Shown: positions 1,813-21,377, numbered from the stretch's first letter. The stretch is DNA of 64,000 nucleotides from an uncultured bacterium (GCA_963719425.1 OY970382.1:742477-806476), one strand, 5' to 3'. Notes: generated from the letters alone by a model not told the origin. Numbers and translations are program-made.

Positions 1813-2127
1813 ATGGAAAGGGAAATTACTATCCAAGACCTTGTCACGTCCATTAAAGATCTTACCCACGCTGTATGGGACGGATTCGGTCTGGTGGATA
1901 AACGCTTTAGCGACGTTGAGCAACAACTCGAACGGCGATTTAACGCCGTAGATAACCGATTTTACGCGCTTGAAGCACGCGTTGACCAGATCAGTTTTAG
2001 CATCTCCCAAATACAAGACGATATGAAGGCGCTCAATGAAGAAATGCGCGGCATTCATAAAGTGATTGACAACCTGAATACTCGCCTTGTTCGCGCAGAG
2101 GGCGCGCTTGGCCTCGAGCGTGCCTAA
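1813..2127 (+). CDS. Hypothetical small coiled-coil protein
   Basis: 104-aa ORF between trpS and ileS. No recognisable motif. Confidence 0.35.
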   Translation: MEREITIQDLVTSIKDLTHAVWDGFGLVDKRFSDVEQQLERRFNAVDNRFYALEARVDQISFSISQIQDDMKALNEEMRGIHKVIDNLNTRLVRAEGALGLERA

Positions 2128-5100
2128 ACCTTCCGGAGTGCGACCCAGATTTCTTGATTTTCCAATTTCGCCATTTCCTCCGCGCTGAATTTTTCCGATC
2201 TTCCGTATTCAACCGATTTCGCGTTGACGGCGGAGCGGAGCGCTACTTCTTGCTTCATAATTGCATCCCGAGCGGCCGGAGGGAGATCAAGCATCAGCGC
2301 AATCTTATCCTTCGGCGCGAGTCCTGCTTTTTGCCGCAGTTCCTGAACCATCCGCGCGACTTCGCGCAGGATTCCCTCTTCGCGGAGCTCCGGTGTGATC
2401 GCAGTGTCAAGTTCAACTTCGCTTTCAATCGTCGGATCAAATATCACTTCCTTCACGTTTACCTCATCAGCCAAAACGCCACGCAAATCTTCTGCCACCG
2501 ATATCTTCAGGGTCGCATCTTTTATTGTGAGTTTACTGAGTGGCTGGCGGACCTTGATGCCGGCCTCCGCACGTTTCGCAAGCGCCAAGCTCGCCAAGCG
2601 CCTCACTTCCGCCATAGCATCGGTCAATTTTTTCCTCTCCACTCCGTCGAAAGAAACCTCTGGAATCGGCCACCCGGCGAGATGCACCGACTCAGCAGTT
2701 TCCTTGCTGCCGCTATACAGCTTCAATGTTCGGTACAGTTCTTCGGCAAGAAACGGCATGAACGGCGCTATGACCTTACTTACCGCAAGGAGACTTTCGT
2801 AAAGGGACCGATAAAAAGCGGCATCCTTCCGCTTGCGGCTGCGGCGGAGATACCACGTGGAAAGGTCATCAATATATTCCTGGATCGTCCGCGTCGCACG
2901 CACGGTATCATATGCCGAAAGACATCCGGTCACTTTTTCCACAAGCTCCGCCGTCCGGGCGTCAATCCATTGGTCAAGAACGTTCACCCCGGGGAGCTCG
3001 CTGCGTTTTTCGGACGCAAGCATCTTCGGATCAACATACGTCGTGAAGAACTTGCATACGTTCCACAGAATGACAACCACTTTCCGATAAACGTTCTCCA
3101 CAGCCTTCTCGGAAAAATTGATGTCGTCGGCCTGCATCACGACGGAATTCATGAGATAGAATCGCAAACTGTCCGCCCCGTATTTCCCGATCACGAGCTT
3201 GGGGTCCGGGAAGTTCCCTTTTGATTTGCTCATCTTTGAACCATCTTCCGCAAGGATATTCCCGGTCGTGACCACGTTTTCAAAGGGCGCCTTCCCGAAG
3301 AGGACGATGGCAATCACGTGCATCACGTAGAACCATGCCCGCGTCTGTGCGGTGTATTCCGCCACGAACTGTGAAGGGAACCGGCTCTCAAAAACTTTTT
3401 TGTTTTCAAAGGGATAATGATATTCGGCGAAGGGCATAGAACCCGCTTCCATCCAGGAATCAAAAATTTCCGGCGTCCGTTTCATCACGCCGCCACATGC
3501 GGGGCACGCGAACGTTATGCCATCAATGTACGGCCGGTGGAGATCTGCTTCTCCCCCGTCATTCCGCGGCACGATCTTGAAATCGAGCTTCCGTATCTCC
3601 GCAAAGCCGATAAAGTCGCCCTCCCGTTTTTTCTTTTCTTCAATCGCGCGCTCTTCGCTCCACCCCTCGGCCGCATGCACGAGCATCCAGCTCGGATACT
3701 CATGCGTCACGAGGAGAATATTTTTCCCTTTGTAAGTCGCTTCGCACTCGGCAAGGAAATTCCACACGCGGGCGCGGAGATCGCGCAGCGATTCGCCTTC
3801 CTCCGGCCGCTTTTCAAACCGGGCCTCGTACGTCGGGAAAAGCCCGAAATATTTTTTATCCTGGTAACCGGTGAGCGTTGGCCCCAGATGGATCTCCTCC
3901 AACCGCCCGTCAAACCGCACTTTTTCTCCCGTGAGCGCCGACGCAATAATGGCTTCGGTTTCCGCGGTGCGCGTGACATCCGAGGAAATTACCACATCCA
4001 ATTTCTCGCCGCGCTTCGCAAGCTCGGATTTGAAACGTTTGATCGCGTCCTTAACCTGTTTTTGACCGCGCGGCGTAAGATGCAAATACTTCCTTTGCCC
4101 CGAATCAACGATGTGGAACATATTGCTCTCCGCCTCCCCATGGCGCATCACCCAATAATTATTTTTTGCACTACCGGCGAGCTTTGACAACTCTTCCAAG
4201 CTGCCGACCGCCTCCTCGCGACAGCATCCGTCGCACTTCCAGACGGGGATTGGATTTCCCCAATAACGGTTGCGGGAAATATTCCAGTCCGGCGCCGCCT
4301 CCACGCTTTTTTCGTAGCGCCCGTGCTTGAGATACGCCGGAAACCAATTGATTTCGCGCCTATTGGAATCCAAAAGTTGCGGCTTTAATTTCTCCACGTT
4401 GATGAACCACGCCGGGATCGCATTGTAGAAAAGTATGTTGCCGCAACGCCAGCAATACGGATACGAGTGTGTATGTGCCTCGCGTTTGAACAACAATCCG
4501 CGATTTTGCAAGTCGTCTTTAATGATTTTTTCAGAATCTTTGAAGTATGTGCCGCGCACGAGTGGCGGCGCTTTCTCGTTAAAGATCCCCTTTTCGTCAA
4601 GCAGCGGCACAACAGGCAACCCCACGCGCACGCCGAGTTCGTAGTCCTCCTCGCCGTAGACGACCGCCGTATGCACCACGCCCGTCCCCTCTTCGGTCGT
4701 CACAAAATCCGCCGGGTAGACCTTAAAAGCCTTGTCGTTCCACGCCGCAGGAACGTCAAAAAGCGGTTCGTACTCTATACCGATTGCTTCGCGCGCCGAG
4801 AATTCGTCGAATTCCCGTTCCGGCAAGGACTCTTTTTTAGGAAGAACATCTTCTCCAGACAAGCGCTTGTAACTTTCCTTCTCCAAAACCAACCAGTGGT
4901 CTTTTTGATCAGGATCGGGCAAGCACACCAACGTATGCTCCGGGTTGACCGCTAACGCGACGTTGCCAGGTAATGTCCATGGAGTCGTGGTCCAAGAAAG
5001 AAAAGAGGTGTTCTGCCACGCAGGATTATCACTCTTCGCCTTAAATTTCACCATTACCGATTCCTCCGTCACGTCGCGGTAACTGTTATCCATCGCCACT

Positions 5101-5687
5101 TCAAAATTTGAAATCGGTGTCTCGCAGCGCGGGCAATACAAAAGCACTTTCCGCCCCTCATAGACCAATCCTTTTTTATAAATTTCCTTGAACGCCCACC
5201 ACACCGATTCCATGTAACTCGCGTCCATCGTTTTATAGGAATCGTCAAATTCCACCCAGCGCGCGATGCGGCGGATCATTTTTCTCCATTCCGCGACGTA
5301 TTCCAGAACCATGCTCCGGCAGGTCTCGTTGAATTTTTTGATGCCGATCGCCTCTATCTGTTTCTTTCCCGAGATGCCGAGCTTGCGCTCCACGATCTCC
5401 TCAATGGGAAGCCCGTGGCAATCCCACCCCCAGCGGCGGCGGACAAACCGCCCGCGCATCGTCTGATAGCGCAGTACCACGTCTTTAATCGTGGACGCCA
5501 AAATGTGCCCGTAATGCGGGAGGCCCGTCGCAAACGGCGGCCCATCGTAGAATGTAAATGGTTTTCCGTCCTTGGTTTTTTCTAAACTTTTTTCAAAGAT
5601 ATGATGGGCGTCCCAAAACTCAAGCGTTTTCTCTTCGCGTTTCGGCAATGAGGAATTATCATTGGAGGAATTCCGTTTCTGCGCCAT
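2124..5687 (-). CDS. ileS: Isoleucyl-tRNA synthetase with an inserted histidine-phosphatase (PGM-like) domain
   Basis: 1187 aa. HYGHILASTIKD (HIGH) and KMSKSKGN are present. The CxxC ... CPAC zinc knuckle is split by a ~195-aa insert carrying RHGEAESN and SSDVTRTAETEA motifs. Confidence 0.9.
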   Translation of the reverse strand: MAQKRNSSNDNSSLPKREEKTLEFWDAHHIFEKSLEKTKDGKPFTFYDGPPFATGLPHYGHILASTIKDVVLRYQTMRGRFVRRRWGWDCHGLPIEEIVERKLGISGKKQIEAIGIKKFNETCRSMVLEYVAEWRKMIRRIARWVEFDDSYKTMDASYMESVWWAFKEIYKKGLVYEGRKVLLYCPRCETPISNFEVAMDNSYRDVTEESVMVKFKAKSDNPAWQNTSFLSWTTTPWTLPGNVALAVNPEHTLVCLPDPDQKDHWLVLEKESYKRLSGEDVLPKKESLPEREFDEFSAREAIGIEYEPLFDVPAAWNDKAFKVYPADFVTTEEGTGVVHTAVVYGEEDYELGVRVGLPVVPLLDEKGIFNEKAPPLVRGTYFKDSEKIIKDDLQNRGLLFKREAHTHSYPYCWRCGNILFYNAIPAWFINVEKLKPQLLDSNRREINWFPAYLKHGRYEKSVEAAPDWNISRNRYWGNPIPVWKCDGCCREEAVGSLEELSKLAGSAKNNYWVMRHGEAESNMFHIVDSGQRKYLHLTPRGQKQVKDAIKRFKSELAKRGEKLDVVISSDVTRTAETEAIIASALTGEKVRFDGRLEEIHLGPTLTGYQDKKYFGLFPTYEARFEKRPEEGESLRDLRARVWNFLAECEATYKGKNILLVTHEYPSWMLVHAAEGWSEERAIEEKKKREGDFIGFAEIRKLDFKIVPRNDGGEADLHRPYIDGITFACPACGGVMKRTPEIFDSWMEAGSMPFAEYHYPFENKKVFESRFPSQFVAEYTAQTRAWFYVMHVIAIVLFGKAPFENVVTTGNILAEDGSKMSKSKGNFPDPKLVIGKYGADSLRFYLMNSVVMQADDINFSEKAVENVYRKVVVILWNVCKFFTTYVDPKMLASEKRSELPGVNVLDQWIDARTAELVEKVTGCLSAYDTVRATRTIQEYIDDLSTWYLRRSRKRKDAAFYRSLYESLLAVSKVIAPFMPFLAEELYRTLKLYSGSKETAESVHLAGWPIPEVSFDGVERKKLTDAMAEVRRLASLALAKRAEAGIKVRQPLSKLTIKDATLKISVAEDLRGVLADEVNVKEVIFDPTIESEVELDTAITPELREEGILREVARMVQELRQKAGLAPKDKIALMLDLPPAARDAIMKQEVALRSAVNAKSVEYGRSEKFSAEEMAKLENQEIWVALRKV

Positions 5688-8145: not shown

Positions 8146-8721
8146 CTAAAAAATCTTCACTCCAAACTTTGCGAGCTCATGCACGATCTCGTAGAGCGGC
8201 AATCCCATAATGCCGAAGAAGTCGCCTTCCACTTTCCGCACGAACGCCGCGCCGCGTCCCTGCACGGCGTATGCCCCTGCCTTATCCAAGGGCTCGCTTG
8301 TTCTTACGTATGCATTAATCTCGCGATCGCCAAGTTTCTTGAAGTAAACTTTGCTCGCACTCACGCGCGACACTCGCTTTCCCGTTTTAGTATCAATAAT
8401 AGTAAAGCCGGTAAGCACCGAATGCACCCCGCCGCTCAATAATTTCAGCATCGCTTTTGCCCTCCTCGGCGTGCCGGGTTTTCCCAAAACGCGGTTTTTA
8501 TAAACAATGAAGGTGTCCGCCCCGATAACGACGGCGTTCTTGTGCCGCTGCGCTACCGATTCCGCCTTTTTCAAAGACAGACTCTTCACAAGTTCCCTCG
8601 GCGCGAGTCCTAGGGTCATGTCTTCCTTATGATCGCCCGGGTCCACAATAAACTTCAAACCGATCCTATCCAGAATCTCCATCCTCCTCGAAGAGGACGA
8701 CGCAAGAACAATCTTCCGCAT
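8146..8721 (-). CDS. maf: Maf-like nucleoside triphosphate pyrophosphatase
   Basis: MRKIVLASSSSRRMEIL matches the Maf N-terminus. The ORF-track start at 8760 is GTG; the ATG at 8721 is preferred. Confidence 0.8.
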   Translation of the reverse strand: MRKIVLASSSSRRMEILDRIGLKFIVDPGDHKEDMTLGLAPRELVKSLSLKKAESVAQRHKNAVVIGADTFIVYKNRVLGKPGTPRRAKAMLKLLSGGVHSVLTGFTIIDTKTGKRVSRVSASKVYFKKLGDREINAYVRTSEPLDKAGAYAVQGRGAAFVRKVEGDFFGIMGLPLYEIVHELAKFGVKIF

Positions 8722-9060
8722 GGAGCTGATTATATCACGCAATCGCGCGGTTTTATCCACGTACCATCGTAGTCAAACGGGGGTTAAAATTCTGCCGAAT
8801 TGACAACGCCAAAGAACGAGTCCGGCGCAGCTATAAAACAGCAATTCCACATTTTTACTTCGGAGAGGTTCAATTACTCCTCCCGCTGTGTTTAAGCAGT
8901 CCACAACGTGCCGATTTAGCGCTTGTTGTCGAGAGGCACTCAACCTTTTATCGAGCAACGACGTGCCTGACCCTGGATATGGCGTATACGGATGCACGCC
9001 TGATCGCCAAACCTGATCGAGACTGGTTACAGCCCTAATTGAGGTCTTTGAATTCCGTAA

Positions 9061-9176
9061 GCGCCCTATCATGGAAATGAGTGGTCTTCGTTGGAACTCG
9101 GGGAATATTTGAGGGAATTGCCGAGGCTGATAAATAAGGTACCAGTCGTCATCCCATAGGACGTTCACGACGTGCA
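9061..9176. repeat. Direct repeat copy 1 (~105 bp)
   Basis: Shares a 34/35-nt core gagtggtcttcgttggaactcgg[g/t]gaatatttgag (9069..9103) with copy 2, and about 75% identity over ~105 bp. Confidence 0.7.
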
Positions 9177-9237
9177 TACGTTCATATGGTAGATGTAATG
9201 ATACGCTAGGACTTACTTGCATGGTAAAATTATAAAA

Positions 9238-10002
9238 ATGAAGCTGATTACGCTGAACATCTGGGGTGGCGCCCTCTACGAGCCGCTTGCTGCTTTCATC
9301 AAACACTGGTCTCCCGAGATAGACATATTTTGCTTCCAAGAGGTGCTGTTTGGCTCTACGCCGACATTCACGCCGGTCCACAAAGGCCGCAGTAATATTT
9401 TTTCGGAAATCTCCTCATGGCTCCCTGGCTTTGCTTCCTATCAGCACTTCGCACCCAGCACGCATTTTCAAACGGAGCCCATAGCATTTAGAGCCGGGCA
9501 AGCGATTTTCACAAAATCTTCGCTGGAGATAAGGAGTAACGGCGGATTTCTTTGCTATAAAGGAAAGCCCCCAATCGAAACCACGAAGGGAGGCAAACTG
9601 ACGGGAAACTGCCAATGGATTGATATTGCGGACGGCAACAGCGCCATCACCATCGCGAATTTGCACGGACTGTGGCAAGAGGGCAGCCACAAGGCAGATA
9701 CGCCAGAGCGACTCACTCAATCGCGCATAGTGAAACAATTTCTTGACGGAAGAACGGGAAAGAAAATTCTCTGTGGAGATTTCAATTTATTGCCTGACGG
9801 GCAGAGCATAAAAATCCTTGAGGACGGCATGAAAAACCTGATAAAGGACTATCAAATTCAATCTACGCGCAGTTCGCTTTATAAGAAAGAAATCAAATTT
9901 GCCAATTATATTTTGGTTTCTCCCGAGGTTAAGGTAAAAGATTTTAGGGTTTTGTCAGATGAAGTTTCCGATCATCTCCCGCTCTACTTGGAATTCAATT
10001 GA
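9238..10002 (+). CDS. Endonuclease/exonuclease/phosphatase (EEP) family protein
   Basis: MKLITLNIWGG ... FCFQEV ... SDHLPL motifs. The ORF-track start at 9217 is TTG; the ATG at 9238 is preferred. Confidence 0.75.
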   Translation: MKLITLNIWGGALYEPLAAFIKHWSPEIDIFCFQEVLFGSTPTFTPVHKGRSNIFSEISSWLPGFASYQHFAPSTHFQTEPIAFRAGQAIFTKSSLEIRSNGGFLCYKGKPPIETTKGGKLTGNCQWIDIADGNSAITIANLHGLWQEGSHKADTPERLTQSRIVKQFLDGRTGKKILCGDFNLLPDGQSIKILEDGMKNLIKDYQIQSTRSSLYKKEIKFANYILVSPEVKVKDFRVLSDEVSDHLPLYLEFN

Positions 10003-10033
10003 GGAATGAAATAAAACCATAGTAAGGCTCGGC

Positions 10034-10147
10034 GGTGGAGACGAGTGGTCTTCGTTGGAACTCGGTGAATATTTGAGAAAACTACCACAGCTGCTAAGTC
10101 GGGCACGGTCAGCATCCCGTAGGACGTGCACTACGTGCACAACGTTC
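10034..10147. repeat. Direct repeat copy 2 (~105 bp)
   Basis: Core at 10043..10077 is identical to copy 1 except for one base. The left end ggtggagacgagtgg matches the ssrA 3' terminus (ggtggagacgggcgg) at 13/15 positions. Confidence 0.7.
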
Positions 10148-10216
10148 ACGACATACACGAAGTTCACTCATCTTCCATCATTACTGTCATGCAATGTAAG
10201 ATGGTTTTCAAAGAAT

Positions 10217-11610
10217 TCACAAAACGAAGGCATCGGTTGAGCTTGCTGAGAAGAGTACGGTGGTGCTGGCCTGCGGATCATAAAGGTATAGGCTTCCGCC
10301 GCGCTGAAAAATCAATTTATCGTCCTGCGTCCATTGCAGAGGGGTGACAAGAGGAAAGGCCCGGTCTTCCCCATCGGCTTGATCCATTCCGAGGCTGAAA
10401 AATTTTTTATTTGCGGGATTAGATACCTCTACAACAAAATTTCCGCACTGCTGTTCCGAAGTGCAGCTGTCAAAGACGATGAATTTGTCATCAAGAGACC
10501 AAGTGGGAACACCTATTTCGTAAGGATTCTCGTACAAAGTCGTCGATGGATAAATAAGTAGCGTGAATGATTGATCGTGAGCCGGAACATTCCATAGGGC
10601 GAGTTGAGAGTCCGAAAAGACTTCGACGGCGGCGAGTTTGTCGCCCGCATGGTCAAGCTGTCCACTGTAAAGAGTGTTGTTATCAGGTATAGTCGCGAAT
10701 AATGTATCCTGACCCGTGATCGTATTCAAAACGTGGAATTCCCTTGAGTGTGGTTCCAGCACGTAGTAGGAAGGACTCCCCCAATCCTTATACGTGGGAT
10801 AAAGTATGGAGCGAACATACAAAATATGCGCACCGTCATTTTGGAGAAGACCGTAAATATGGGAGGTATCGCTTGCGATATTGAGCCATTGTCTGCCAAG
10901 CTGTAGTATGTTTCCGCGTCCATGATCGTCGTTGTTGGGGCTGTCGCAGCCGCCATTGATGAATCATATACGGCCCTCCAGGCTTCGTTCGCCCCTCCTA
11001 ATGTCACTGTCGGCGGTAATGGGTACGGCGGGGTAGATGTTGTCCGGAGATCTATAACATTTTGGAATTTGGGTATGTAAACAAGGTGATCCGAAAGCCA
11101 ATAATCGGCGTTAAGAAATTCACCCACAAAACTACCTGTGAGTGATCCCGTGTCTTTGAGGGTTTTCGTGATTCGACCGCCATTATTCAAATCCATAAAA
11201 CCTATATCGGTCTCTCCGTCGTGGCCCAACATATAATATTCCGAATAGGAAAAATTGGGAGAGATGGAATAGTAGAATACGGTTCCGCTGGTATGAGAAA
11301 GTTGCATGGGGTTGCTTCCGTCGTCGTTGGCGATCCACACTTCACCACCCTTTAAAAAGGCAACTTTGTTCTGAAATGTATTCGGTGCAACTGACGACTG
11401 GCTTATACCAATTGTAGTTGTAGACGTTGATGACGTAGATGCGGCAGCTGGTTGGGATAGCGATGCCGGCGGTGGCGGTGGTGAAGTGACCAGCGGAACC
11501 AATGGAGAGGTTGGCTTCTTTAGCGCGAAATATAAAATCCCGCCTCCCACTACCAACAGGACCGCAACGATGAGAATGATTATAATCGGCGCGAAGCCTC
11601 TTCGATTCAT
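10217..11610 (-). pseudogene. Membrane-anchored Pro-rich / beta-propeller (TolB-like) surface protein, interrupted by a frameshift near 10965
   Basis: Two overlapping minus-strand ORFs (10726..11610 and 10217..10822). Both frames read as plausible protein on either side of ~10965. N-terminal TM helix, PPPPP linker, and WIANDDGS / YLYDP beta-propeller-like repeats. Confidence 0.5.
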
Positions 11611-11890
11611 TGCTTTAATTATAACAAATCAGAAACGGTTCGATTCCACTCGTCTCTTAGATATTTTGGGTCAAAAAAAGAGAAAACGACGCTCTGCAAG
11701 CGCTGATTCTGCTGGAGTCCCGATATCAAATAACCGTGGACGCAACGGCACTGCCACCGAACTATTTGATGCTATAGCCGAGAACGCCGAAGCAATGCAG
11801 ACATGGAACGCATTCGCGCAAGCGTTCATGGCCCAGGAACGCAAAGAGGACGCTCTATCTGTAACGCTTTGAGGTTGGTATAATCAGGGC

Positions 11891-12193
11891 ATGATCAAGC
11901 GTAAAGACAACCTCACGGACATCGTTGAAGACCTCCAAAAGGATCGGGATAAAAAGCCGGAACCGAATCAGAAGCCCGAAAAGCCCGGCAAAAACGAATG
12001 GCAAGTCACGGATAACGAAGGAAACATCGTCACTTTGGGCCAAAAACCCGGGAGCCGCACAGCGTCATCTAATAAGGCAAATCCCGTTGAACTATCTCAA
12101 GACGTGATGGAGGCTATCAAGCAGGCGGTACAAACGGGCATCAAAGAAGCGTTTGAGAAGTGGGAGGAAAAACGGCGACGCGAAAAATCGTAA
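11891..12193 (+). CDS. Hypothetical protein (Lys/Glu-rich, 100 aa)
   Basis: ORF only. Lower-GC, phage-like context. Confidence 0.4.
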   Translation: MIKRKDNLTDIVEDLQKDRDKKPEPNQKPEKPGKNEWQVTDNEGNIVTLGQKPGSRTASSNKANPVELSQDVMEAIKQAVQTGIKEAFEKWEEKRRREKS

Positions 12194-12233
12194 TCAGCTG
12201 GAAGGTTGTCGCGAGCGAGGTGCTATGTCATAG

Positions 12234-12968
12234 TTGCAAAGAAACATGGCCATCACAAGAACGAGCCAGCTGCAAAAATGGATATTGGAAACATGCCTGG
12301 AAAAAGTGAGGTTCCAAAGAACGGATGCGCGGGCGTTCTTCGGCAAGCGATTTTCGCCAAGCTACCTCAAAGATAATCCCAAGCATCGCATTGGAGATTG
12401 GAAAATCAAAAAGTGGTATGACGGTGACATGAGCCTGTTCGAACGGCGGACTGAAACCGTCATGGAGTGGCGGCGAAAGCTACAGAAGCGCGTGCCGGTA
12501 ACCAAAATCTACTGCGTCCCCAAAAAAGAGCTCATCGCCACTCCGACCATCGAAGTCACGATCTCGCGCAGCCTGCACAACCTCGTGCGAAAGGACCTGC
12601 TTGAGCAGTCAAAGAAGTGGGGACCGTACACCCTGACCAAACGCGGATTCGAAACTGTTAAGAACAGTCCAGATAAGTGGACTGGTATTAGCTTTAAGGA
12701 ATATGAGGCAAAAGTAGAGGAAGCGCGAAAAGAGGAGGAAGGGTGGATGGCCGCAACGGTCGCCAAGCTGACGCCGCCATCCGCCCAGAAGCAGCGCAAG
12801 ACGCTTGAACTGCAAGCGAAGCTGCAGGACTTTAATAAGCGATTCAATCCGGCGACGATCCACGCGCGATTGTGTAGGAAATGCCAAAAGAAGATAGCCC
12901 GATTCGAAAAGGCGTCCGGAGCTACGGCGATTAAAAAGCTCCGGGATGAAATCAACCGCACAGAGTAA
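12234..12968 (+). CDS. Hypothetical protein, possible winged-helix DNA-binding
   Basis: 244-aa ORF. The segment RSLHNLVRKDLLEQSKKWGPYTLTKRG resembles a winged helix. Confidence 0.45.
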   Translation: MQRNMAITRTSQLQKWILETCLEKVRFQRTDARAFFGKRFSPSYLKDNPKHRIGDWKIKKWYDGDMSLFERRTETVMEWRRKLQKRVPVTKIYCVPKKELIATPTIEVTISRSLHNLVRKDLLEQSKKWGPYTLTKRGFETVKNSPDKWTGISFKEYEAKVEEARKEEEGWMAATVAKLTPPSAQKQRKTLELQAKLQDFNKRFNPATIHARLCRKCQKKIARFEKASGATAIKKLRDEINRTE

Positions 12969-13096
12969 ATGTTAATGAGTTTCTTCCGCGGATGAAACTC
13001 CTTAACAATAAGGATTGTGGCAAGCCATTGTATGGGTTACAATAAAAGTGTGAGACAGCCGAGCTGGCTCAAAAATAGGACGACGTAGGACGACGC

Positions 13097-13654
13097 ATGA
13101 AAATACTCCCCCAGCAGGAATATCATATCCGCCAAGTGATCCGCGACAATCTCGCGCTCAATCCCCTGATCTCAATCCGCAATCTCCAGAAGGTGGTTGA
13201 GTACAACACACATCGCCCGATCGGCGATAAGTATTTGATGCGGTTGCTTGGGAAGATCCGTGGCGAGGTTATTGCCCAAGCGGACCGGCAGGGAGTGGCC
13301 GAGCGGCTCACCGAAGTGAAGGAGCGCTTCCGGGTGTTGCGGAAAGAGTTGCTTCGCATCGTCTACTGGGAGATGAGATACTTCCCGGAGTATGGCATTG
13401 AACGGCCGAGTAGCCGCGACCGTATGAACGCCATAAAAACGATTGCCCAGATGGACCTCGCCCTCCTCAAAACCGAGCTTGATACCGGGATGTTCAGCAA
13501 AAAGCAGAACGACATTGAGGCATTGCTCAACGACCCCGCCTTGCCATCCGAACTGCACGAGCAAATCGTGGGCGTATTCAGGCAATGGAGGTTCTCGCGG
13601 CCTGAACGAACCGAGGCAAAAACAGCTCCGCAGATGGCTATTGTCAAAAACTGA
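13097..13654 (+). CDS. Hypothetical protein
   Basis: 185-aa ORF. No recognisable motif. Confidence 0.45.
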   Translation: MKILPQQEYHIRQVIRDNLALNPLISIRNLQKVVEYNTHRPIGDKYLMRLLGKIRGEVIAQADRQGVAERLTEVKERFRVLRKELLRIVYWEMRYFPEYGIERPSSRDRMNAIKTIAQMDLALLKTELDTGMFSKKQNDIEALLNDPALPSELHEQIVGVFRQWRFSRPERTEAKTAPQMAIVKN

Positions 13655-13703
13655 GAGGGCCGAGGGCGGCGAATAGGAGCCCATTGGGCACCGTTCGAGC
13701 CAC

Positions 13704-14066
13704 GTGGGGAGATTACGGGGATTGAGGGACCTTGTAGGGCGGGGAGAAAATCAAAGCAACCAGACAAAAACCATGAGATATTCAAAAGAACTTCGCGAGG
13801 AGTATAAGCGGACGGTCAAACTGGCCATGATGGCCGTGCCGTCCTTCATGGGGGAGGTCACGTTATACGAAATCAATGAGGCAATGCGGAAGGCTTACGG
13901 CGCCAGGTTCAATAAAAAATATCTGTCAAAGCTGAGGGATGAGCTGCAGGCAGAACAAGATCTGCTCGTGGAGAAGCTCTCGACTCCGGAAGGCAGGATG
14001 GAACTTATTGAGGAGCTGCAGGGAAGACTCGCCCTATTGGATGTGATGGCTCAAACGCTACAGTAG
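13704..14066 (+). CDS. Hypothetical protein
   Basis: 120-aa ORF. Confidence 0.4.
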   Translation: MGRLRGLRDLVGRGENQSNQTKTMRYSKELREEYKRTVKLAMMAVPSFMGEVTLYEINEAMRKAYGARFNKKYLSKLRDELQAEQDLLVEKLSTPEGRMELIEELQGRLALLDVMAQTLQ

Positions 14067-14181
14067 CAAATGAAAAAAAGCCCGGATTGCTTTCGCTTCA
14101 CGGGCTTGATGCCGTGGAGGGTTGCTTGGTCATGCTTATCCGACATGAAAAGAGGGCTGTTTCAGCAGCAAAAAATAGCCA

Positions 14182-14210
14182 TTGACACCAGAACTCTATT
14201 TTGGTAGAAT
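14182..14210 (+). promoter_or_regulatory. Near-consensus sigma70 promoter upstream of the DGR target gene
   Basis: TTGACA (14182..14187), 17-nt spacer, TGgTAGAAT extended -10 (14202..14210). Confidence 0.55.
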
Positions 14211-14340
14211 ATAGGGGTTCTTTAACAAGATAAAAATCAAGGTTTCAAACATACGCATGAGGCGAGTATTCAGCGGGCCGCGCAAGCCCTTTGAACACTC
14301 GTCTCATAACCTGAGCGGGTAGAAAAGGAGGATGATAACG

Positions 14341-15243
14341 ATGCCTACATCGATTACATCCAACATCACCGAAGGACAGAAGGAACTCTACGAGCGCGTC
14401 GTACGCGACGCTGCGAAACACGGCACCGCGCTTGCGCTCGAGAAGACCGGCGCAGACCAGGTTGGCTGGCAGCGCGTCATCGAAAACGGCGACGATCTCC
14501 GCGAAGCGATCGCGGCAACCATCGTGGCCAAAACCCTGGAGCTTTCAATCTCTAACCAGTTCGCCGACGAGGAAGTGGAGTCGAGCTACGGCTACCTGTC
14601 GGGCTATCGGAAGCCCAAGGGCGTCACCGAGCAGACGAACATCCTGCGTCAGCTTTTCCCCGGCGTCGGTTTCGCCGACGAGAAGATCGCGGAACAGCCG
14701 CTCCCGCCGAACACCGAAGGATGGTTCGCCATCCCGAAGTGGGAAACGATCGCCCCGACCTACGGCGAAGCGGTGCAGAAGGTGTTCGACATGATCAAGA
14801 AGACCCGAGGCGGCAAGTTCTACAACTGGCGCGAGGGCCAGCTTGGTCCGCAGTACCTTCGGCAATCCGCGAAGTCGGTCAAGGCGTTCCAGAAACTCGG
14901 CACCGAGCAGAAGGATCACGACATCCTCGTCGTTGCGGCGCAGTTCGGTCTACGTCACCGGGGCCGTTCGGTTCGCAGGGCGCGGGAAGTCATGAACGCA
15001 TCCGAGTTCGGTCTCGGTGCGTTCGCCATCGGGATCATGCTACTCACGCATCCCGAGCGTCTCAGGCACTATGACGATCTCTGGATCGACTGTGCCGGGG
15101 ACGAGTTCAGCTACGATGGCGATGGCCGGTTCGACAGCGCGCCGTTCTTCTACTTCGACGGCGTCGGGGTGAAGTTCGACGCGAGCGACGTTGCCTCTGC
15201 GCTCGCCCACTATGGCTCGGCGTCGGCTTCCGTTCCGCAGTAG
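14341..15243 (+). CDS. DGR target (variable) protein with a C-terminal variable repeat
   Basis: Strong SD AAGGAGG at 14325..14331. The last ~43 codons form the VR. No obvious signal peptide. Confidence 0.8.
   Translation: MPTSITSNITEGQKELYERVVRDAAKHGTALALEKTGADQVGWQRVIENGDDLREAIAATIVAKTLELSISNQFADEEVESSYGYLSGYRKPKGVTEQTNILRQLFPGVGFADEKIAEQPLPPNTEGWFAIPKWETIAPTYGEAVQKVFDMIKKTRGGKFYNWREGQLGPQYLRQSAKSVKAFQKLGTEQKDHDILVVAAQFGLRHRGRSVRRAREVMNASEFGLGAFAIGIMLLTHPERLRHYDDLWIDCAGDEFSYDGDGRFDSAPFFYFDGVGVKFDASDVASALAHYGSASASVPQ
15111..15240 (+). other. DGR variable repeat (VR)
   Basis: 130 bp, 111/130 identical to TR. All 19 mismatches correspond to A in TR. Confidence 0.85.
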
Positions 15244-15326
15244 ATTGAACCTTGATTGCTCGAGTGCTTGGGTCTTTTGATCCTCTTATCTTCTTGATCC
15301 CTTGCATTCGCGCGATTTTTTCCACA

Positions 15327-15357
15327 GGGGCTTCCGCACCATCATCGCGGCAGCCCC
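15327..15357 (+). promoter_or_regulatory. Hairpin downstream of VR (candidate DGR homing-associated stem-loop)
   Basis: ggggcttccgc / gcggcagcccc is an 11-bp stem with one mismatch and a 9-nt loop, ~85 bp 3' of VR. Confidence 0.45.
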
Positions 15358-15670
15358 TTTCTCTTTTCAGCTTCACAAAAAACATTTCCATTTATATACT
15401 TACAAGCGAGCATAGGCTAATGCACGGCCGTCCACGGATTGCCGTCGCCGAACTCTCTCTTCAAAAAAGAGATCCACAGCCAGAGTCCGGACGGTCACGG
15501 CTTTCCGGAGCGTGCTGCCTTGAGGAGATTACTGCTTGCCCCTGCCTTGTGCGGGTGTCCCGCGAGCGCGGGGCTGCTGCCGAATAAAATACAGGAATGA
15601 GAGGATATAGTTCCGCTGCCAGTGGGAAGTAACCCTCGAGATCCGGTGACGCGGACGGGCGGGAGCAATA

Positions 15671-15800
15671 CTACGATGGCGATGGCCGGTTCGACAACGC
15701 GCCGTACTTCAACTTCAACGACGACAAGGTGAAGTTCGACACGAACGACGTTGACAATGCGAACGACAACTATGGCTCGGCGTCGGCATCCGTTCCGAAG
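15671..15800 (+). repeat. DGR template repeat (TR)
   Basis: Non-coding copy of VR, same orientation. Adenine-rich, with AAC codons in the VR frame. Confidence 0.85.
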
Positions 15801-15814
15801 TTCCTCCTCAAGTG

Positions 15815-15840
15815 AAATGCCCCCTTCAGCGGGGGCATTT
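15815..15840 (+). promoter_or_regulatory. Perfect 10-bp hairpin immediately 3' of TR
   Basis: aaatgccccc-ttcagc-gggggcattt, placed between the TR end and the avd stop. Confidence 0.4.
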
Positions 15841-15842
15841 CT

Positions 15843-16190
15843 TTACTGTTTCACTGATCGTATCCACCCGCCGAGCATCCTGCCGATCTCGTCGATTGGA
15901 GCTTGGAGCGCGAGATACTTCTTTCCGTCGATGCCTCTTGTCTCGTGCATGAGACGGATGAAAACGCGAAGGAAGTTGAGTTTCACGCTCGCCCTCTCAA
16001 GCACCGGCAGCTTCTCGCTCTTGGACATCTGGCTGGCAGCCATGATGCCCTCAAGCACGTCGAGGATCATCGCGTCGCACCGTTGCCAGATGGTATAGCG
16101 GTCCTGCTTCGACATCGTGTTGCGATAGCTGTAAAACAGCTTGTAGAGATCGCAGGTCTTCTTGAAGATGGGAACATCAAAATCATCCAT
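15843..16190 (-). CDS. avd: Avd-like accessory variability determinant (four-helix-bundle / 23S rRNA IVS protein family)
   Basis: 115 aa. The C-terminal ...PIDEIGRMLGGWIRSVKQ resembles the Bordetella phage Avd C-terminus (EVGRILGSWIARVNRKGQ). Confidence 0.8.
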   Translation of the reverse strand: MDDFDVPIFKKTCDLYKLFYSYRNTMSKQDRYTIWQRCDAMILDVLEGIMAASQMSKSEKLPVLERASVKLNFLRVFIRLMHETRGIDGKKYLALQAPIDEIGRMLGGWIRSVKQ

Positions 16191-16198
16191 TAGCTTTT

Positions 16199-17239
16199 AT
16201 GAAGGTTTATAAAAACGCATTCGACCGTATTGCGTCTCTCGAAAATCTCTTTGCTGCGTGGAACGCCTTCAAGGGAAACAAGCGGAACAAGGATGACGTG
16301 CAGCAGTTTGAGCGGCACCTTGAGCAAAACATTTTCCAGCTGCATCGTGATCTCACGAGTGGGTCGTACCGGCACGGCCCGTATTACGGTTTCTACATTC
16401 ACGACCCCAAGCAGAGGCACATCCACAAAGCGTCCGTAAGAGACAGGGTTTTGCATCACGCGGTCGTATCGGTGATCAACCCAATGTTCGAGGAGGCCTT
16501 TATCCCATCCTCCTTCTCGTGCCGCGTTGGATTTGGCACGCACAAGGGCGTCGATGTCCTCGAAGAAATGGCACGGGCGGCGGCGGAGAACGGCACCGCA
16601 CCATGCTTCATTTTGAAATGCGATGTTCGGAAGTTCTTTGACAGCGTTGACCATGACGTCCTGCTCGGCATTTTGGGAAAGCGCATCAAGGACGATGCCA
16701 CGATAAATCTCATCACAGAAATCGTCGAGAGCTTCTCATCTTCCCGATCAAGCCTATTTGATCGCAAAGGGCTGCCGATCGGCAACCTCACGTCGCAGCT
16801 TTTCGCGAACACTTACATGAACGAGTTCGACCAGTTCATAAAACACGACCTCAAGGTGAAGCAGTACGCCCGTTACACGGACGACTTCGCCATCGTCGCA
16901 TCCGATCGCGCGTACTTGGAGAACCTGATCGAGCCGATCTCCCGCTTCCTGAATGACCGGCTTGCGCTTGAGCTGCATCCGAAAAAAATATCTATCGGGA
17001 AGCTGCATAATGGCATCGACTTCCTCGGATACGTCATGTTCCCGAGACATCGGCTTGTCCGGGCCAAAACGCGCCGCCGGATGTTCGCGAAGTTCGCGGC
17101 GAAGATAGCGGCGGTCCGCAGCGGAAGCATTTCCGAGGACTCTCTTATCGCTTCGCTCCGGTCATATCTCGGCGTCTTGTCGCACGCGGATGCGCATCGA
17201 TTGTCGGAGGACCTGAAGAACGGACTATGGTTCAACTAA
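16199..17239 (+). CDS. DGR reverse transcriptase
   Basis: 346 aa. LPIGNLTSQLFAN is the DGR-specific motif-4 signature, and YTDDF is the catalytic box. Confidence 0.9.
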   Translation: MKVYKNAFDRIASLENLFAAWNAFKGNKRNKDDVQQFERHLEQNIFQLHRDLTSGSYRHGPYYGFYIHDPKQRHIHKASVRDRVLHHAVVSVINPMFEEAFIPSSFSCRVGFGTHKGVDVLEEMARAAAENGTAPCFILKCDVRKFFDSVDHDVLLGILGKRIKDDATINLITEIVESFSSSRSSLFDRKGLPIGNLTSQLFANTYMNEFDQFIKHDLKVKQYARYTDDFAIVASDRAYLENLIEPISRFLNDRLALELHPKKISIGKLHNGIDFLGYVMFPRHRLVRAKTRRRMFAKFAAKIAAVRSGSISEDSLIASLRSYLGVLSHADAHRLSEDLKNGLWFN

Positions 17240-17248
17240 TGCCCGGCC

Positions 17249-17947
17249 TCAATACCACTTCGCCACGCCTCCGTGATGCGAACACGCGCCGCTGTGGGTT
17301 TTGCTGTAGCTGTATGATCCGTCGCGGCAGAGCGCGGTAGCACCGGTAGGCACGCCTGCATTGGTCTTGATCGTCGGAGTAACCGTCGTTGTCTTGGGTT
17401 TCGGAACCGCCTTCGCACCCGCCGCCATCATCGCGGAATAGTATTTGAGCCAGTTGCTTGAAATCTCCGCTTGGGCATCGCTCAAAGACATCTTTCCGCT
17501 GCATACCTGTGTGTGCAGATAGTTCTCGAACTTATCCTTGATCAAAGAACCGTTTGCAATCAACGAGGACTCCGGCCAGAGGTTTGCGATGGCGTTGCTG
17601 CCGCCAAGTTCCAAGCTGATAAGATGATCCACCTCGTAGTTGGCGTGGAGCTTGTATGCGATGCCGTATTCGGCGAACACCTGCTTACTCTCCGAAAGCG
17701 GGACGTTACGGACGGTCTTCGTGTAACCCACGGTGCACACCGTTGCAGTGTTGGTCGTGAGCACCGCCCCAGGCGTGCAGCCGGAGTCCGGCAACACTTG
17801 GTTCCCGACGCACTGCGACGTTTTCGTCTGCACGCCATAGGCGGCGAGTGAAGGCAACGCGCTCGCAGCGAGCATGAGTGCGGCGAGGGCGAAAACTGAC
17901 GTTTTCATGCTCATGAGGGTCATTGAATGTTGACCAACGTGTTGCAC
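17249..17947 (-). CDS. Secreted protein with HNH-like nuclease motif and C-terminal DUF3761-like Cys motif
   Basis: Signal peptide MKTSVFALAALMLAASALPSLAA. EVDHLISLELGGSN is HNH-like. C-terminal CRDGSYSYSKTHSGACSHHGGVAKW. The true start may be at 17908. Confidence 0.55.
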   Translation of the reverse strand: MQHVGQHSMTLMSMKTSVFALAALMLAASALPSLAAYGVQTKTSQCVGNQVLPDSGCTPGAVLTTNTATVCTVGYTKTVRNVPLSESKQVFAEYGIAYKLHANYEVDHLISLELGGSNAIANLWPESSLIANGSLIKDKFENYLHTQVCSGKMSLSDAQAEISSNWLKYYSAMMAAGAKAVPKPKTTTVTPTIKTNAGVPTGATALCRDGSYSYSKTHSGACSHHGGVAKWY

Positions 17948-19119
17948 GCGTCGTTGCCAGTCCCGCCCTCAATGATGCCCTGCTGCTTCAGGAAATCGCA
18001 GAGCGTGGACTGGTCAAATCCCGACCAGTTGATCTTCTGGTAGGTGTCCTTGTCCATTCCGTAGATCAGCACGGGAGTGTTGTTGTGCTGATTCCCGTAC
18101 GCGTCCGTTGTCTGGCCATCATATTCGACAAGAACATCGTAAGCATTATTGCCGGACGAGTATACGGTTTGGAATAGCTGAGCCGAGAGCTTGTTGGTCA
18201 CGTCGAGCAACGCGCTCTTGTCCAAGAAGTTCCCGACGTTCACGAAGACGGTGATCCCGGTCGTTCCCGCTGGCCGGTCCGGATCGGCAGCGTTTATTCG
18301 CAGATCCCCATAGTCCGCCTGAATGCCGCCGCCGAGCTTGGATATGTTGCCTTGAACGTTGTGCTTCAGCGCCTGTTGCGTTTGAAGAACCTGCTGCGCC
18401 CCCTGAAAGGTTTGGTCCGCAAGCGTTTGCTGTTCCTGCTTTATCGCAGCGGCTTGTGAGGTGGTGATCGCCGGAGATGCCTTGATCAAATCCAGCGCTT
18501 GGCTCTCGTCGCTGTTGCCCTGCTCAATGGAAGTGAATGCCGCGTTCGCCGCATCGGGATCAAGGAAGGAGAAACCGCCCTTCGGCACGGCGACATTGAT
18601 CGCCGCGACCAAGGCGTTGATGCCGCTTATCTGACTTGAAACTGCCTGATTGAGCAAGCTGTCTGCCTGCGACAAGTCGGAGGGGGCTTGGCCGTTCAGC
18701 GATTGGATGTTTTTCTGGGCCTGCGAGAAGTCGGCCTGCGCTTCGGTCTCGCTCGCGGTTACGAGGTCTTCAAGGTATTGTCCGCCGTAGATCGCCAGCG
18801 TGGGATCGCGCATGTCCTTCTGCGCTTTCTGGATGGCGGGTATCACGTTCGTCTGAACGGAGTTTATGTAATCCGCATCCGACAACTTGGGGCCGGAGTT
18901 GGTTGCGTTGGTAGTTTGCGCGGGGTTTGAAGCGACCGGGGTACCAGCTGGCGCGGTCGGACTGGTGATGCCGACGAGGACAAAGAACACGACTATCGCA
19001 CCGCCGAAGATCATGCCTACGCGTTTGCGCGAAGGCATTTTGATCCAAGATGGCTTTATGAGGCCAACGATAAGGCCAAGGAAAGAAACGAGGAGAAGAA
19101 CAATAAAGAAATCGTTCAT
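17920..19119 (-). CDS. Hypothetical membrane-anchored Gln/Ala/Ser-rich protein
   Basis: The likely start is MNDFFIVLLLVSFLGLIVGLI (ATG at 19119). The ORF-track extension to 19218 is probably readthrough. Confidence 0.5.
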   Translation of the reverse strand: MNDFFIVLLLVSFLGLIVGLIKPSWIKMPSRKRVGMIFGGAIVVFFVLVGITSPTAPAGTPVASNPAQTTNATNSGPKLSDADYINSVQTNVIPAIQKAQKDMRDPTLAIYGGQYLEDLVTASETEAQADFSQAQKNIQSLNGQAPSDLSQADSLLNQAVSSQISGINALVAAINVAVPKGGFSFLDPDAANAAFTSIEQGNSDESQALDLIKASPAITTSQAAAIKQEQQTLADQTFQGAQQVLQTQQALKHNVQGNISKLGGGIQADYGDLRINAADPDRPAGTTGITVFVNVGNFLDKSALLDVTNKLSAQLFQTVYSSGNNAYDVLVEYDGQTTDAYGNQHNNTPVLIYGMDKDTYQKINWSGFDQSTLCDFLKQQGIIEGGTGNDACNTLVNIQ

Positions 19120-19439
19120 GGTTGTGTGGTTGGTTGAAAAAACAAACGCCCCTCGCGCGGAGGAGCTTTCATCGACCAAAAAGCCCACCACGTGGGTGAG
19201 GGCTTTCGCCCTCCACACCGGTTTCCCGATGTGGCTGATCAGAGCAATCCCACATGATGGGGTTTTTAGCTCTGATCAGACTTCTTGTGCCATGCCGGGC
19301 ATTGCTGTCACGGTTTAGGCTACTGATTAAGTTGTGATTAGATATTACAATACTCCGGAGCATTTGCGAAGCATCGCCGATTTTGAAGCTACAGGAGCCC
19401 CCCTCAACTCTTCGAGGATAATCCGGTATAGTTCAGAAT

Positions 19440-21095: not shown

Positions 21096-21377
21096 AGGTA
21101 ATGCGCGTGGGCCGTCTACGGGCGTGTCTAGTGGAACACTAGCAACGCGATCCTAGTTTTCGCGCGCGGTATAGGATCATCCGCCGCGGCTAGTCCCCTT
21201 ATATAAGACCGGCTGTGAGCCCAAGGAACCCGGACTCGCCGATCCCGGCATTACGCGTAAGCGAACGCCGGAGCTGTAACTCTATTAGAGTTGGCAGTTA
21301 TGTTTTGTGCGGCAGTTACGTCGTCGCCCTCGGCCCGCAAACCCACTGCTTGCCCTTATCAAAGCCAGTGCGTCCCC
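21062..21377 (-). ncRNA. ssrA: Probable tmRNA (ssrA)
   Basis: 3' end GGCGG-UUCGAUU-CCGCC CGUCUCC A CCA (T-arm, acceptor, CCA). 5' GGGGACG pairs with it 316 nt upstream. CUGGCUUUGAUAAGGG resembles the conserved tmRNA 5' motif. Internal tag ORF GCC AAC ... = ANSNRVTAPAFAYA then UAA. Confidence 0.55.

Follow-up and report, generated by a model that had tools for sequence, protein, structure and literature searches.

A 64-kb stretch of DNA from an uncultured bacterium (GCA_963719425.1 OY970382.1:742477-806476; 64,000 nucleotides, hereafter the window) contains a pair of direct repeats, copies 1 and 2, on either side of an EEP-family gene (9238-10002, + strand; Pfam Exo_endo_phos PF03372, E 9e-10). 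The repeats lie between a group of housekeeping genes (Maf at 8146-8760, with IleRS and ArgRS also to the left) and the far end of an island of ~11 kb, which adjoins the tmRNA gene, ssrA, and carries a large serine recombinase (LSR) and a diversity-generating retroelement (DGR). We describe the make-up of the repeat, its occurrence elsewhere and its probable origin in LSR insertion at ssrA.

Comparison of the window with itself (blastn) aligned 9072-9184 with 10036-10148 at 78.9% identity over 114 columns (E 4e-21), and a repeat search of the window returned an ungapped block of 71 nt with 79% identity between the copies. A core of 35 nt, GAGTGGTCTTCGTTGGAACTCGGKGAATATTTGAG, occurs exactly twice in the 64 kb, at 9079-9113 and 10043-10077 (0 expected from 100 shuffles), and the copies differ at only one of its positions (34/35). 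The pair reported around the EEP gene in the original prediction, which was made from the sequence alone, is therefore real, and the coordinates and percentages given there are correct to within a few bases. Its description of the repeat stands, except that a run of 9-bp units in the 3' part was overlooked. Self-blastn, a core scan and a scan for pairs of these units found no third copy in the window, and the repeat search found no terminal inverted repeats at the repeat and no inverted repeats inside it. Across 9-12 kb the GC content falls from ~0.53 to 0.46-0.48.

Each copy opens with a sequence resembling the 3' end of ssrA. In copy 2 (10034-10167) this is GGTGGAGACGAGTGG (10034-10048, + strand), which matches the + strand of the ssrA 3' end, GGTGGAGACGGGCGG (21063-21077), at 13 of 15 positions and is the sole match to it in the window at two mismatches or fewer. 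The counterpart in copy 1 (9070-9185), CATGGAAATGAGTGG at 9070-9084 (+ strand), is in register with 10034-10048 in the alignments and agrees with the ssrA end at 9/15 positions, as read from the sequence. Both halves of the earlier description, a 13/15 match opening copy 2 and a more diverged version opening copy 1, are thus borne out. The segment GTGGAGACG at 10035-10043 is identical to 21064-21072, and in a three-way comparison it was the only block common to the ssrA end of the window, copy 2 and the ssrA gene of the related genome L002 described below.

The 3' part of each copy is a run of units of the form ACGTKCAY. Copy 1 has three, spaced by 9 then 8 bp (9160-9185, + strand) and placed directly after the stop codon of the reading frame discussed below, and copy 2 has five units of this type at 9-bp spacing (10123-10167, + strand). 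Paired units are confined to these two places in the 64 kb, with 0.27 pairs expected. Between copy 1 and the EEP gene, 7 nt upstream of its ATG, an extended -10-like element, TGGTAAAAT (9222-9230, + strand), was recognised by eye only; it is absent from the output of a strict two-hexamer promoter scan. No convincing gene follows copy 2 on the same strand. The neighbouring stretch at 10217-11610 (- strand) holds two overlapping open reading frames (ORFs) of 201 and 294 amino acids without a Pfam match, of which the public gene call retains just the 294-aa one, so that ~700 bp are left without a called gene.

The stretch 10034-21072 has the make-up of an intact integrative element of ~11 kb, comprising the left-end repeat, ORFs of no known family, the DGR, a LOOT RNA and the LSR gene (19440-21095, + strand). 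The LSR has the domain order of phage-type serine integrases, ie a Resolvase catalytic domain (PF00239), a Recombinase domain (PF07508) and a zinc ribbon (Zn_ribbon_recom, PF13408), and its nearest solved relatives in the PDB are SPbeta SprA (YokA) and the TP901-1 integrase. Pfam detected no second Resolvase-domain protein in 10150-21100 and no tyrosine recombinase domain in the window proteins scanned. The class of enzyme is thereby refined to a large serine recombinase rather than a tyrosine integrase. The last 11 codons of its gene (NGGDGRNRTAV) lie antisense to the 3' end of ssrA, with an overlap of 34 nt, the codons NGGDGR being antisense to TGGTGGAGACGGGCGG. The ssrA gene itself (21062-21377, - strand) is complete according to both ARAGORN and Rfam (tmRNA, 102 bits), and its 3' end would carry the ssrA-proximal, attR-type junction; similarity to the ssrA flank of L002 ends at 21064. 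Between 10150 and 21062 neither self-blastn nor the unit scan found a further copy of the repeat. The last 24 nt of ssrA are unmatched in direct orientation at up to six mismatches, and a long displaced ssrA fragment of the kind left by tyrosine integrases was accordingly rejected for that orientation.

The module in other genomes

A 21-mer from the core was sought in 185,579 species genomes (one genome per species) and in a metagenome collection. Among the species genomes it occurred at a single locus, in the Minisyncoccia metagenome-assembled genome SPRUCE 501 (L002); the metagenome matches were copies of that same contig only, and no viral contig contained it. With two more found through the peptide search described below (L011 and L014), the repeat unit, or module, is known in three other genomes. 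The L002 locus is syntenic with the window, with 89% identity towards ssrA and 84% towards Maf. Its Maf-ssrA interval measures 5.2 kb and holds different genes: the EEP gene and the whole of 10034-21072 are missing, and neither a recombinase nor a DGR is present. The island is therefore present in the window and absent from a genome whose flanks are 84-89% identical. A truly empty site was not found among the relatives examined. L002 carries three full copies of the module (B, A and F) and three partial ones (C, D and E), all in one orientation, as in the window, and the genes between them differ. The partial copies consist only of the 9-bp units and a promoter-like site after them. A tRNA-like sequence, GGGGCGTAGCTCAAGG...CGCTCCA (~4228-4155, - strand), was also noticed by eye in the long leader of a 64-aa gene after copy C; it is called neither by ARAGORN nor by Rfam at its gathering threshold.

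In L014, from a more distant genome, the module and the 3' end of ssrA are ~1 kb apart and on opposite strands, and no recombinase lies near. L011 is a contig of only 1.1 kb, whose context beyond is not visible, and its module has a 42-nt insertion between the two halves. In the window, L002 and L014 the module is always downstream of ssrA and on the strand opposite to it. It is thus a rare module, limited to a single lineage and bound to the region downstream of ssrA.

Both window copies resemble a copy in L002 more closely than they resemble each other, with identities of 76% between copies 1 and 2, 80% between copy 1 and A, and 85% between copy 2 and B. The order of the subtypes is reversed, the copy-1 subtype lying remote from ssrA in the window but close to it in L002. 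These two observations together disfavour a local duplication. Searches with tblastn for pseudogene remnants of a recombinase in L002, in 8700-10400 of the window and in L005 (an island described below) gave chance-level matches only.

The 9-bp units behave as a separate sub-module, since L014 lacks them and in L011 they are 47 nt further from the stop codon than elsewhere. Otherwise three to five follow the stop, at a spacing of 9 bp with a single 8-bp step in the subtype formed by copies 1, C and D. Good -35 and -10 hexamers, and then a gene on the same strand, come after L002 copies B, C and D and after the L011 module. The units might be protein-binding sites for an outward promoter, a putative role in which we place little confidence.

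Coding signature and the recombinase family

The conserved core encodes the motif GNEWSSLELGEYLR.LP.L, in phase with the LSR codons GGT GGA GAC. In copy 1 the frame reads HGNEWSSLELGEYLRELPRLINKVPVVIP and ends at a TAG (9070-9159, + strand); it has no start codon, and a TAA lies three codons upstream. In copy 2 it reads GGDEWSSLELGEYLRKLPQLLSRA (10034-10122, + strand); 1 nt is deleted near 10103, and the conserved TAG occupies 10120-10122. The corresponding peptides are CGNEWSTLELGEYLRELPRLMDRAPVSIP in L002 copy A and GGDEWSSLELGEYLRKLPQLLNRVPISIP in copy B, each followed by the stop; that of copy 2 is as in copy B apart from its deletion, and L011 and L014 begin GGNEWTTLELGDYLKEFPRLVNK... and CGNQWSTLDFGEYLRQLPGLMNK..., respectively. 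The coding character of these tails was assessed on six of them (copies 1 and 2, A, B, L011 and L014) from four genomes. No stop interrupts the tail frame, whereas the other two frames have 13 and 6. Variable columns number 14, 4 and 13 at the first, second and third codon positions, with the minimum at the second. The synonymous fraction of the codon differences is 0.40 in the tail frame, compared with 0.24 and 0.04 in the others, a value reached by 15 of 2000 column shuffles. The TAG is at the same place in five copies, and in copies 1, 2 and B there is no in-frame start codon after the upstream stop.

A profile of the module peptide was run against 1.84 billion proteins (HMMER) and recovered two small ORFs, P0122 and P0123, the first of them on the L011 contig and the second in L014; gene callers had placed ORFs of 58 and 33 amino acids over the module in L011 and L014. 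In P0122 the tail GGNEWTTLELGDYLKEFPRLVNK is joined without a break to the peptide LNHPF, a C-terminal motif that is near-invariant in the LSR family. A made-up chimeric query, joining the LSR C-terminus to the tail, gave a single word-index candidate and no match, an uninformative result. Because the core is coding, is in phase with the LSR and varies least at second positions, the modules would be left-end junctions carrying a severed LSR tail; the simplest reading is that integration cuts this C-terminal tail off the recombinase gene. The original prediction of an attachment core plus an arm then holds for the core, as an attachment half-site, and is revised for the arm, of which the first ~75 nt would be the severed 3' coding end of a recombinase gene. 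On the same simplest reading, the differences between copies would record the divergence of element lineages while the tails still belonged to working genes, and we propose that the core is conserved at 34/35 positions for two reasons, as an LSR half-site and as the code for GNEWSSLELGEYLR.LP.L. An extension of the coding frame through the TAG, with the 9-bp units read as (D/N/Y)(V/I)H tripeptides, was rejected because one subfamily has 8-bp spacing, the L011 units sit 47 nt past the stop in another frame, and the partial copies have a terminator on one side and a promoter on the other.

The LSR has more than 1,500 homologues at E <1e-20, mostly in Parcubacteria/Paceibacteria-type genomes, and its profile found no relatives in viral contigs. 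In three islands (L005, L007 and L008) the homologue likewise reads into the 3' end of ssrA. Almost all of the 120 best homologues (P0001-P0120) have a conserved PF..L followed by short peptides such as GGDGG, GARERT and GGRGETRTPNPFGIRF, and most of these C-termini are probably the antisense of tRNA or tmRNA 3' ends (acceptor and T arms). This suggests that the whole family inserts at tRNA or tmRNA 3' ends with its reading frame running into the target. A related arrangement was observed in L006 (10001-20457), where two different LSR genes stand in tandem at one ssrA. The outer protein, P0003 (614 aa), continues after GGGD into a long, unrelated C-terminal extension, which would be expected had a second element inserted between it and ssrA.

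The far end of an island could be compared in L005, whose LSR is 60% identical to that of the window. There, 10.3 kb away from ssrA and with the strand as in the window, GGTAGAGATGGGCGT is followed by TCTGGCGGGAACTCTTTGATG..GAGAAA, the counterpart of TCTTCGTTGGAACTCGGTGAA..GAGAAA in copy 2. The conserved core thus marks the far junction of an LSR island in an independent genome. Of the two sites in L005 (1342 and 3452), the one at 3452 is a second ssrA-like core, followed by an open frame of 45 codons.

L010, a contig of 4,929 nt with an LSR 52% identical to that of the window, has a 30-nt terminal direct repeat and is therefore probably circular; it contains no tRNA or tmRNA gene. Its LSR frame passes AAC GGT GGG and continues for 40 codons (..NGGRKHTTLELFE..), so that in an unintegrated element attP appears to be inside the recombinase gene. 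A GAACT motif lies 24 nt from GGTGG, the same distance as in copy 2. The cargo of L010 comprises only an AAA_15/AAA_21 ATPase (567 aa) and two small ORFs beside the LOOT RNA and the LSR, and it may be a minimal member of the family with defence-like cargo. Two further contigs with long-tailed recombinases (L012 and L013), considered as free forms, are not circular and added nothing. Local alignment of the left flanks of the modules with LSR 3' ends gave no significant DNA similarity, the one weak match being between L011 and L010.

LOOT RNA (Rfam RF03000, 70-86 bits) was present ~0.1-3 kb upstream of every LSR gene examined, the probably circular contig included, and is usually ~115 nt away and divergent. 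It is found at 19198-19321 (- strand) in the window, at 9765-9887 in L005, at 8935-9061 and 15709-15825 in L006, at 8933-9057 in L007, at 9771-9887 in L008 and at 2440-2554 in L010, and is absent from the recombinase-less loci L002 and L014. It therefore looks like a fixed component of the element family. The main text of the paper describing its discovery does not discuss its function, and its association with every recombinase copy examined makes the role of this RNA a lead worth following.

The DGR of the window island (14332-17239) is intact, with its variable repeat (VR) at 15111-15241, at the 3' end of a 303-aa target gene, its template repeat (TR) at 15671-15801 and a reverse transcriptase at 16199-17239. 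VR and TR share 85% identity, and each of their 19 mismatches is at a template adenine. Copies 1 and 2 were also considered as a template/variable pair and rejected as such, because their mismatches are not adenine-specific and the real pair is the one just given. An integron cassette array was likewise rejected, there being no inverted repeat within the modules and no tyrosine recombinase domain in the scanned proteins. Elsewhere in the island, CGGTTCGATTCCACTCGTCTC (11636-11660, + strand) resembles the T loop of ssrA or a tRNA in the orientation opposite to ssrA. Its agreement with the ssrA 3' region is 12/12 positions, then a 3-nt difference, then 6/6. It also has CCACTCGTCTC in common with the module core read as reverse complement, and may be the relic of another recombination event. 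Outside the island, IleRS (2124-5687, - strand) has a His_Phos_1 histidine-phosphatase domain within its catalytic domain (residues 512-680), and this insertion is kept in three related genomes (window, L007 608-4207 and L014 14028-17573).

Origin of the repeats

We consider it probable that the two repeats are the left-end junctions of two elements of one family, inserted successively by LSRs at the 3' end of ssrA. The original proposal of accretion in tandem at one attachment site is supported by the arrays in L002, the geometry of L014, the extension of the island's recombinase into the ssrA 3' end, the far end of L005 and the cross-genome identities. Of its further claim, that an EEP cassette and a DGR island each brought an attachment core and an arm, the two elements stand and the arm is reassigned in part to the LSR coding end.

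In the mechanism we envisage, attP of the free circle would lie within the 3' end of the LSR gene, whose frame would cross the ssrA-mimicking GTGGAGACG and continue for ~25-45 codons. Recombination at the ssrA 3' end would leave the LSR beside ssrA, ending in ssrA-antisense codons (NGGDGR...), and would carry the other half of attP to the far end of the element, namely the severed tail codons, the stop, the ACGTKCAY units and the upstream region of the first cargo gene. Each later insertion at ssrA would displace the older elements outward, where they would decay. Copy 2 would accordingly be read as the far end, or distal attL-type junction, of the intact LSR/DGR island, and probably as attL of the window's own LSR. 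Copy 1 with the EEP gene would be the remnant of an older element (9070-10033) that has lost its recombinase, and might still exit together with its neighbour if copy 1 can serve as a left junction. Phage-type serine integrases join an attP of ~50 bp to an attB of ~40 bp at a 2-bp crossover, which here presumably falls within GTGGAGACG, and the elements may still be mobile.

The scheme makes predictions at the level of single junctions. The circle junction (attP) should read ...CAAAATGACGAATGGTGGAGACGAGTGGTCTTCGTTGGAACTCGG..., the empty site (attB) ...AGGCTCGGCGGTGGAGACGGGCGGAATCGAACCGCC..., and a composite circle formed through copy 1 ...GAATGGTGGAGAC / GAGTGGTCTTCGTTGGAACTCGGGGAATATTTGAGGG.... 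The attP reconstructed by joining 21030-21072 to 10044-10090 would give the full-length LSR the ending ..GGDEWSSLELGEYLRKLPQLL.. in place of the ..GGDGRNRTAV of the integrated form.

Several observations weigh against this origin. No excised form, empty site or junction read was seen for the window element, and protein searches, the 1.84 billion proteins included, found no full-length LSR with this exact tail. Nothing in the left flank of copy 2 is recognisable as LSR sequence, and no trace of an older recombinase survives between the EEP gene and that copy. The core motif of L005 is shifted by single-base indels relative to that of the window, with the result that constraints at the DNA and protein levels are inseparable there, and the L007 and L008 islands gave no clear distal junction. 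The lack of 9-bp units in L014 and their 47-nt shift in L011 count in the same direction, and the role of the units is only putative. Finally, the 85% identity between copies 2 and B is about that of the flanking core genes (84-89%).

The last point leaves some room for vertical inheritance of the module with turnover of its cargo. The module would then be a promoter/operator unit with protein-binding repeats, locally duplicated, the genes between its copies having been exchanged by homologous recombination with no integration scar. The sigma-70-like hexamers after several copies, and partial copies C, D and E with nothing but 9-bp units and a promoter-like site, would suit such a unit. It would leave unexplained the ssrA-like core opening each full copy, the coding signature in LSR phase, the LSR C-terminal motif contiguous with the tail in P0122 and the recurrence of the core at the distal end of the L005 island, and the reversal of subtype order between the window and L002 also speaks against it. 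We regard this explanation as unlikely. A free-standing small protein gene, duplicated, would share the coding signature and agree with the ORFs called in L011 and L014; the missing start codons in copies 1, 2 and B, the abrupt beginning of conservation at the ssrA-like core and the continuity of the P0122 frame with the LSR motif make it very improbable.

The original prediction had allowed for a duplicated cis-regulatory RNA. A structured RNA, whether a leader or a small RNA, would account for the very well conserved core and for the position of copy 1 just upstream of the EEP gene, and yet Rfam gave no match at the gathering threshold or with E up to 10. Single-sequence folds were no better than those of shuffled sequences on either strand (z-scores +0.19, +0.79, -0.70 and +0.11), and the consensus folds of five copies were weak (-9.3 and -8.4 kcal/mol, with covariation terms of +2.1 and -0.4), ie there was no stable or covarying fold on either strand. 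The variation tracks codon positions, L011 has its 42-nt insertion between the module halves, and copy 2 has no convincing gene downstream. That alternative is accordingly dropped as highly unlikely. Occurrence throughout the genome next to unrelated genes would have indicated instead a generic dispersed repeat, or a family of miniature transposable elements, beside ssrA by chance. Several copies per genome would be in keeping with this, and the short L011 contig conceals its context. Nevertheless, self-search disclosed no extra copy in the 64-kb window, the exact-core scans of species genomes and metagenomes led only to the ssrA-adjoining locus, terminal inverted repeats are lacking, and the orientation relative to ssrA is uniform in three genomes. 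A dispersed repeat is on these grounds scarcely tenable, and successive LSR insertion remains the reading we prefer.

Comparison with known systems

By analogy, the closest precedent is the set of ssrA islands of Dehalococcoides (2011, BMC Genomics 12:287, PMC3146451). Those islands are in tandem and bounded by ssrA or a ~20-bp repeat of its 3' end, to which a conserved extra motif is adjoined; the 3' end of the LSR gene overlaps the attachment site or ssrA, with the stop codon only beyond the island; and islands without an integrase were read by the authors as accreted or cis-mobilisable (PMC3146451). The present elements agree in the overlap of the LSR 3' end with ssrA (34 nt in the window, and also in L005, L007 and L008) and in the tandem islands, some of them integrase-less, with a repeat and a motif (copies 1 and 2; A, B and F in L002; 1342 and 3452 in L005). 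They differ in their host, which belongs to the candidate phyla radiation (CPR)/Patescibacteria (Minisyncoccia), and in that neither a second, small serine recombinase (DsiA) nor a six-gene integration module was seen. Their identical repeat is shorter, with 9-10 nt exact and 13/15 overall, and their conserved flank is longer (~100 nt) and appears to encode a severed recombinase tail.

On this view the puzzling repeat is a mark that serine-recombinase islands at the tmRNA gene can be expected to leave, and an element design so far described for Dehalococcoides appears to be widespread in CPR/Patescibacteria. The analysis also gives boundaries for a putatively mobile DGR island of 11 kb, and a rule for finding such boundaries, ie an ssrA-like core followed by an orphan recombinase tail. 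For Dehalococcoides it was suggested that the integrase is perhaps fully functional only on the circular form (PMC3146451). Exchange of the C-terminal tail might control integration versus excision. More tentatively, the exchange could be a working switch and not a by-product throughout this large CPR family, which appears to target tRNA and tmRNA genes. Only the circular form would then encode the full-length enzyme with its conserved tail, GNEWSSLELGEYLR.LP.L in the present subfamily, the antisense codons acquired on integration could set the direction or level of recombination, and the orphan tails and the LOOT RNA would belong to one conserved element design.

Tyrosine integrases also build islands at tRNA and tmRNA genes (Williams 2003, 'Traffic at the tmRNA gene'; Islander, PMC4383910), in the latter case at the 3' end of ssrA. 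There the gene is restored by the incoming element, the far end is recognised by a displaced 3' fragment, and arrays in tandem are frequent. The features by which Islander and Williams recognise such islands are present here, namely an intact ssrA abutted by the island, a 13/15 match at the far end, a recombinase at the boundary and a patchy distribution in relatives. In contrast to those islands, the enzyme is a serine recombinase and no long displaced ssrA fragment is found; the block of identity is short because of this class of enzyme.

SCCmec with CcrAB offers another parallel, being an LSR-driven island that inserts at the 3' end of a single-copy essential gene, has short direct repeats and forms composite or tandem elements. 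Its target is protein-coding (orfX/rlmH), however, it depends on two recombinases, and the recombinase gene does not extend across the attachment site. An attP inside the integrase gene, with different C-termini in the integrated and free forms, is a feature of Mx8 in Myxococcus (intP to intX) and of the SSV1-type archaeal integrases, which are tyrosine recombinases. The elements described here would differ from both in that only a C-terminal tail of ~25-45 residues is exchanged, and in a large serine recombinase.

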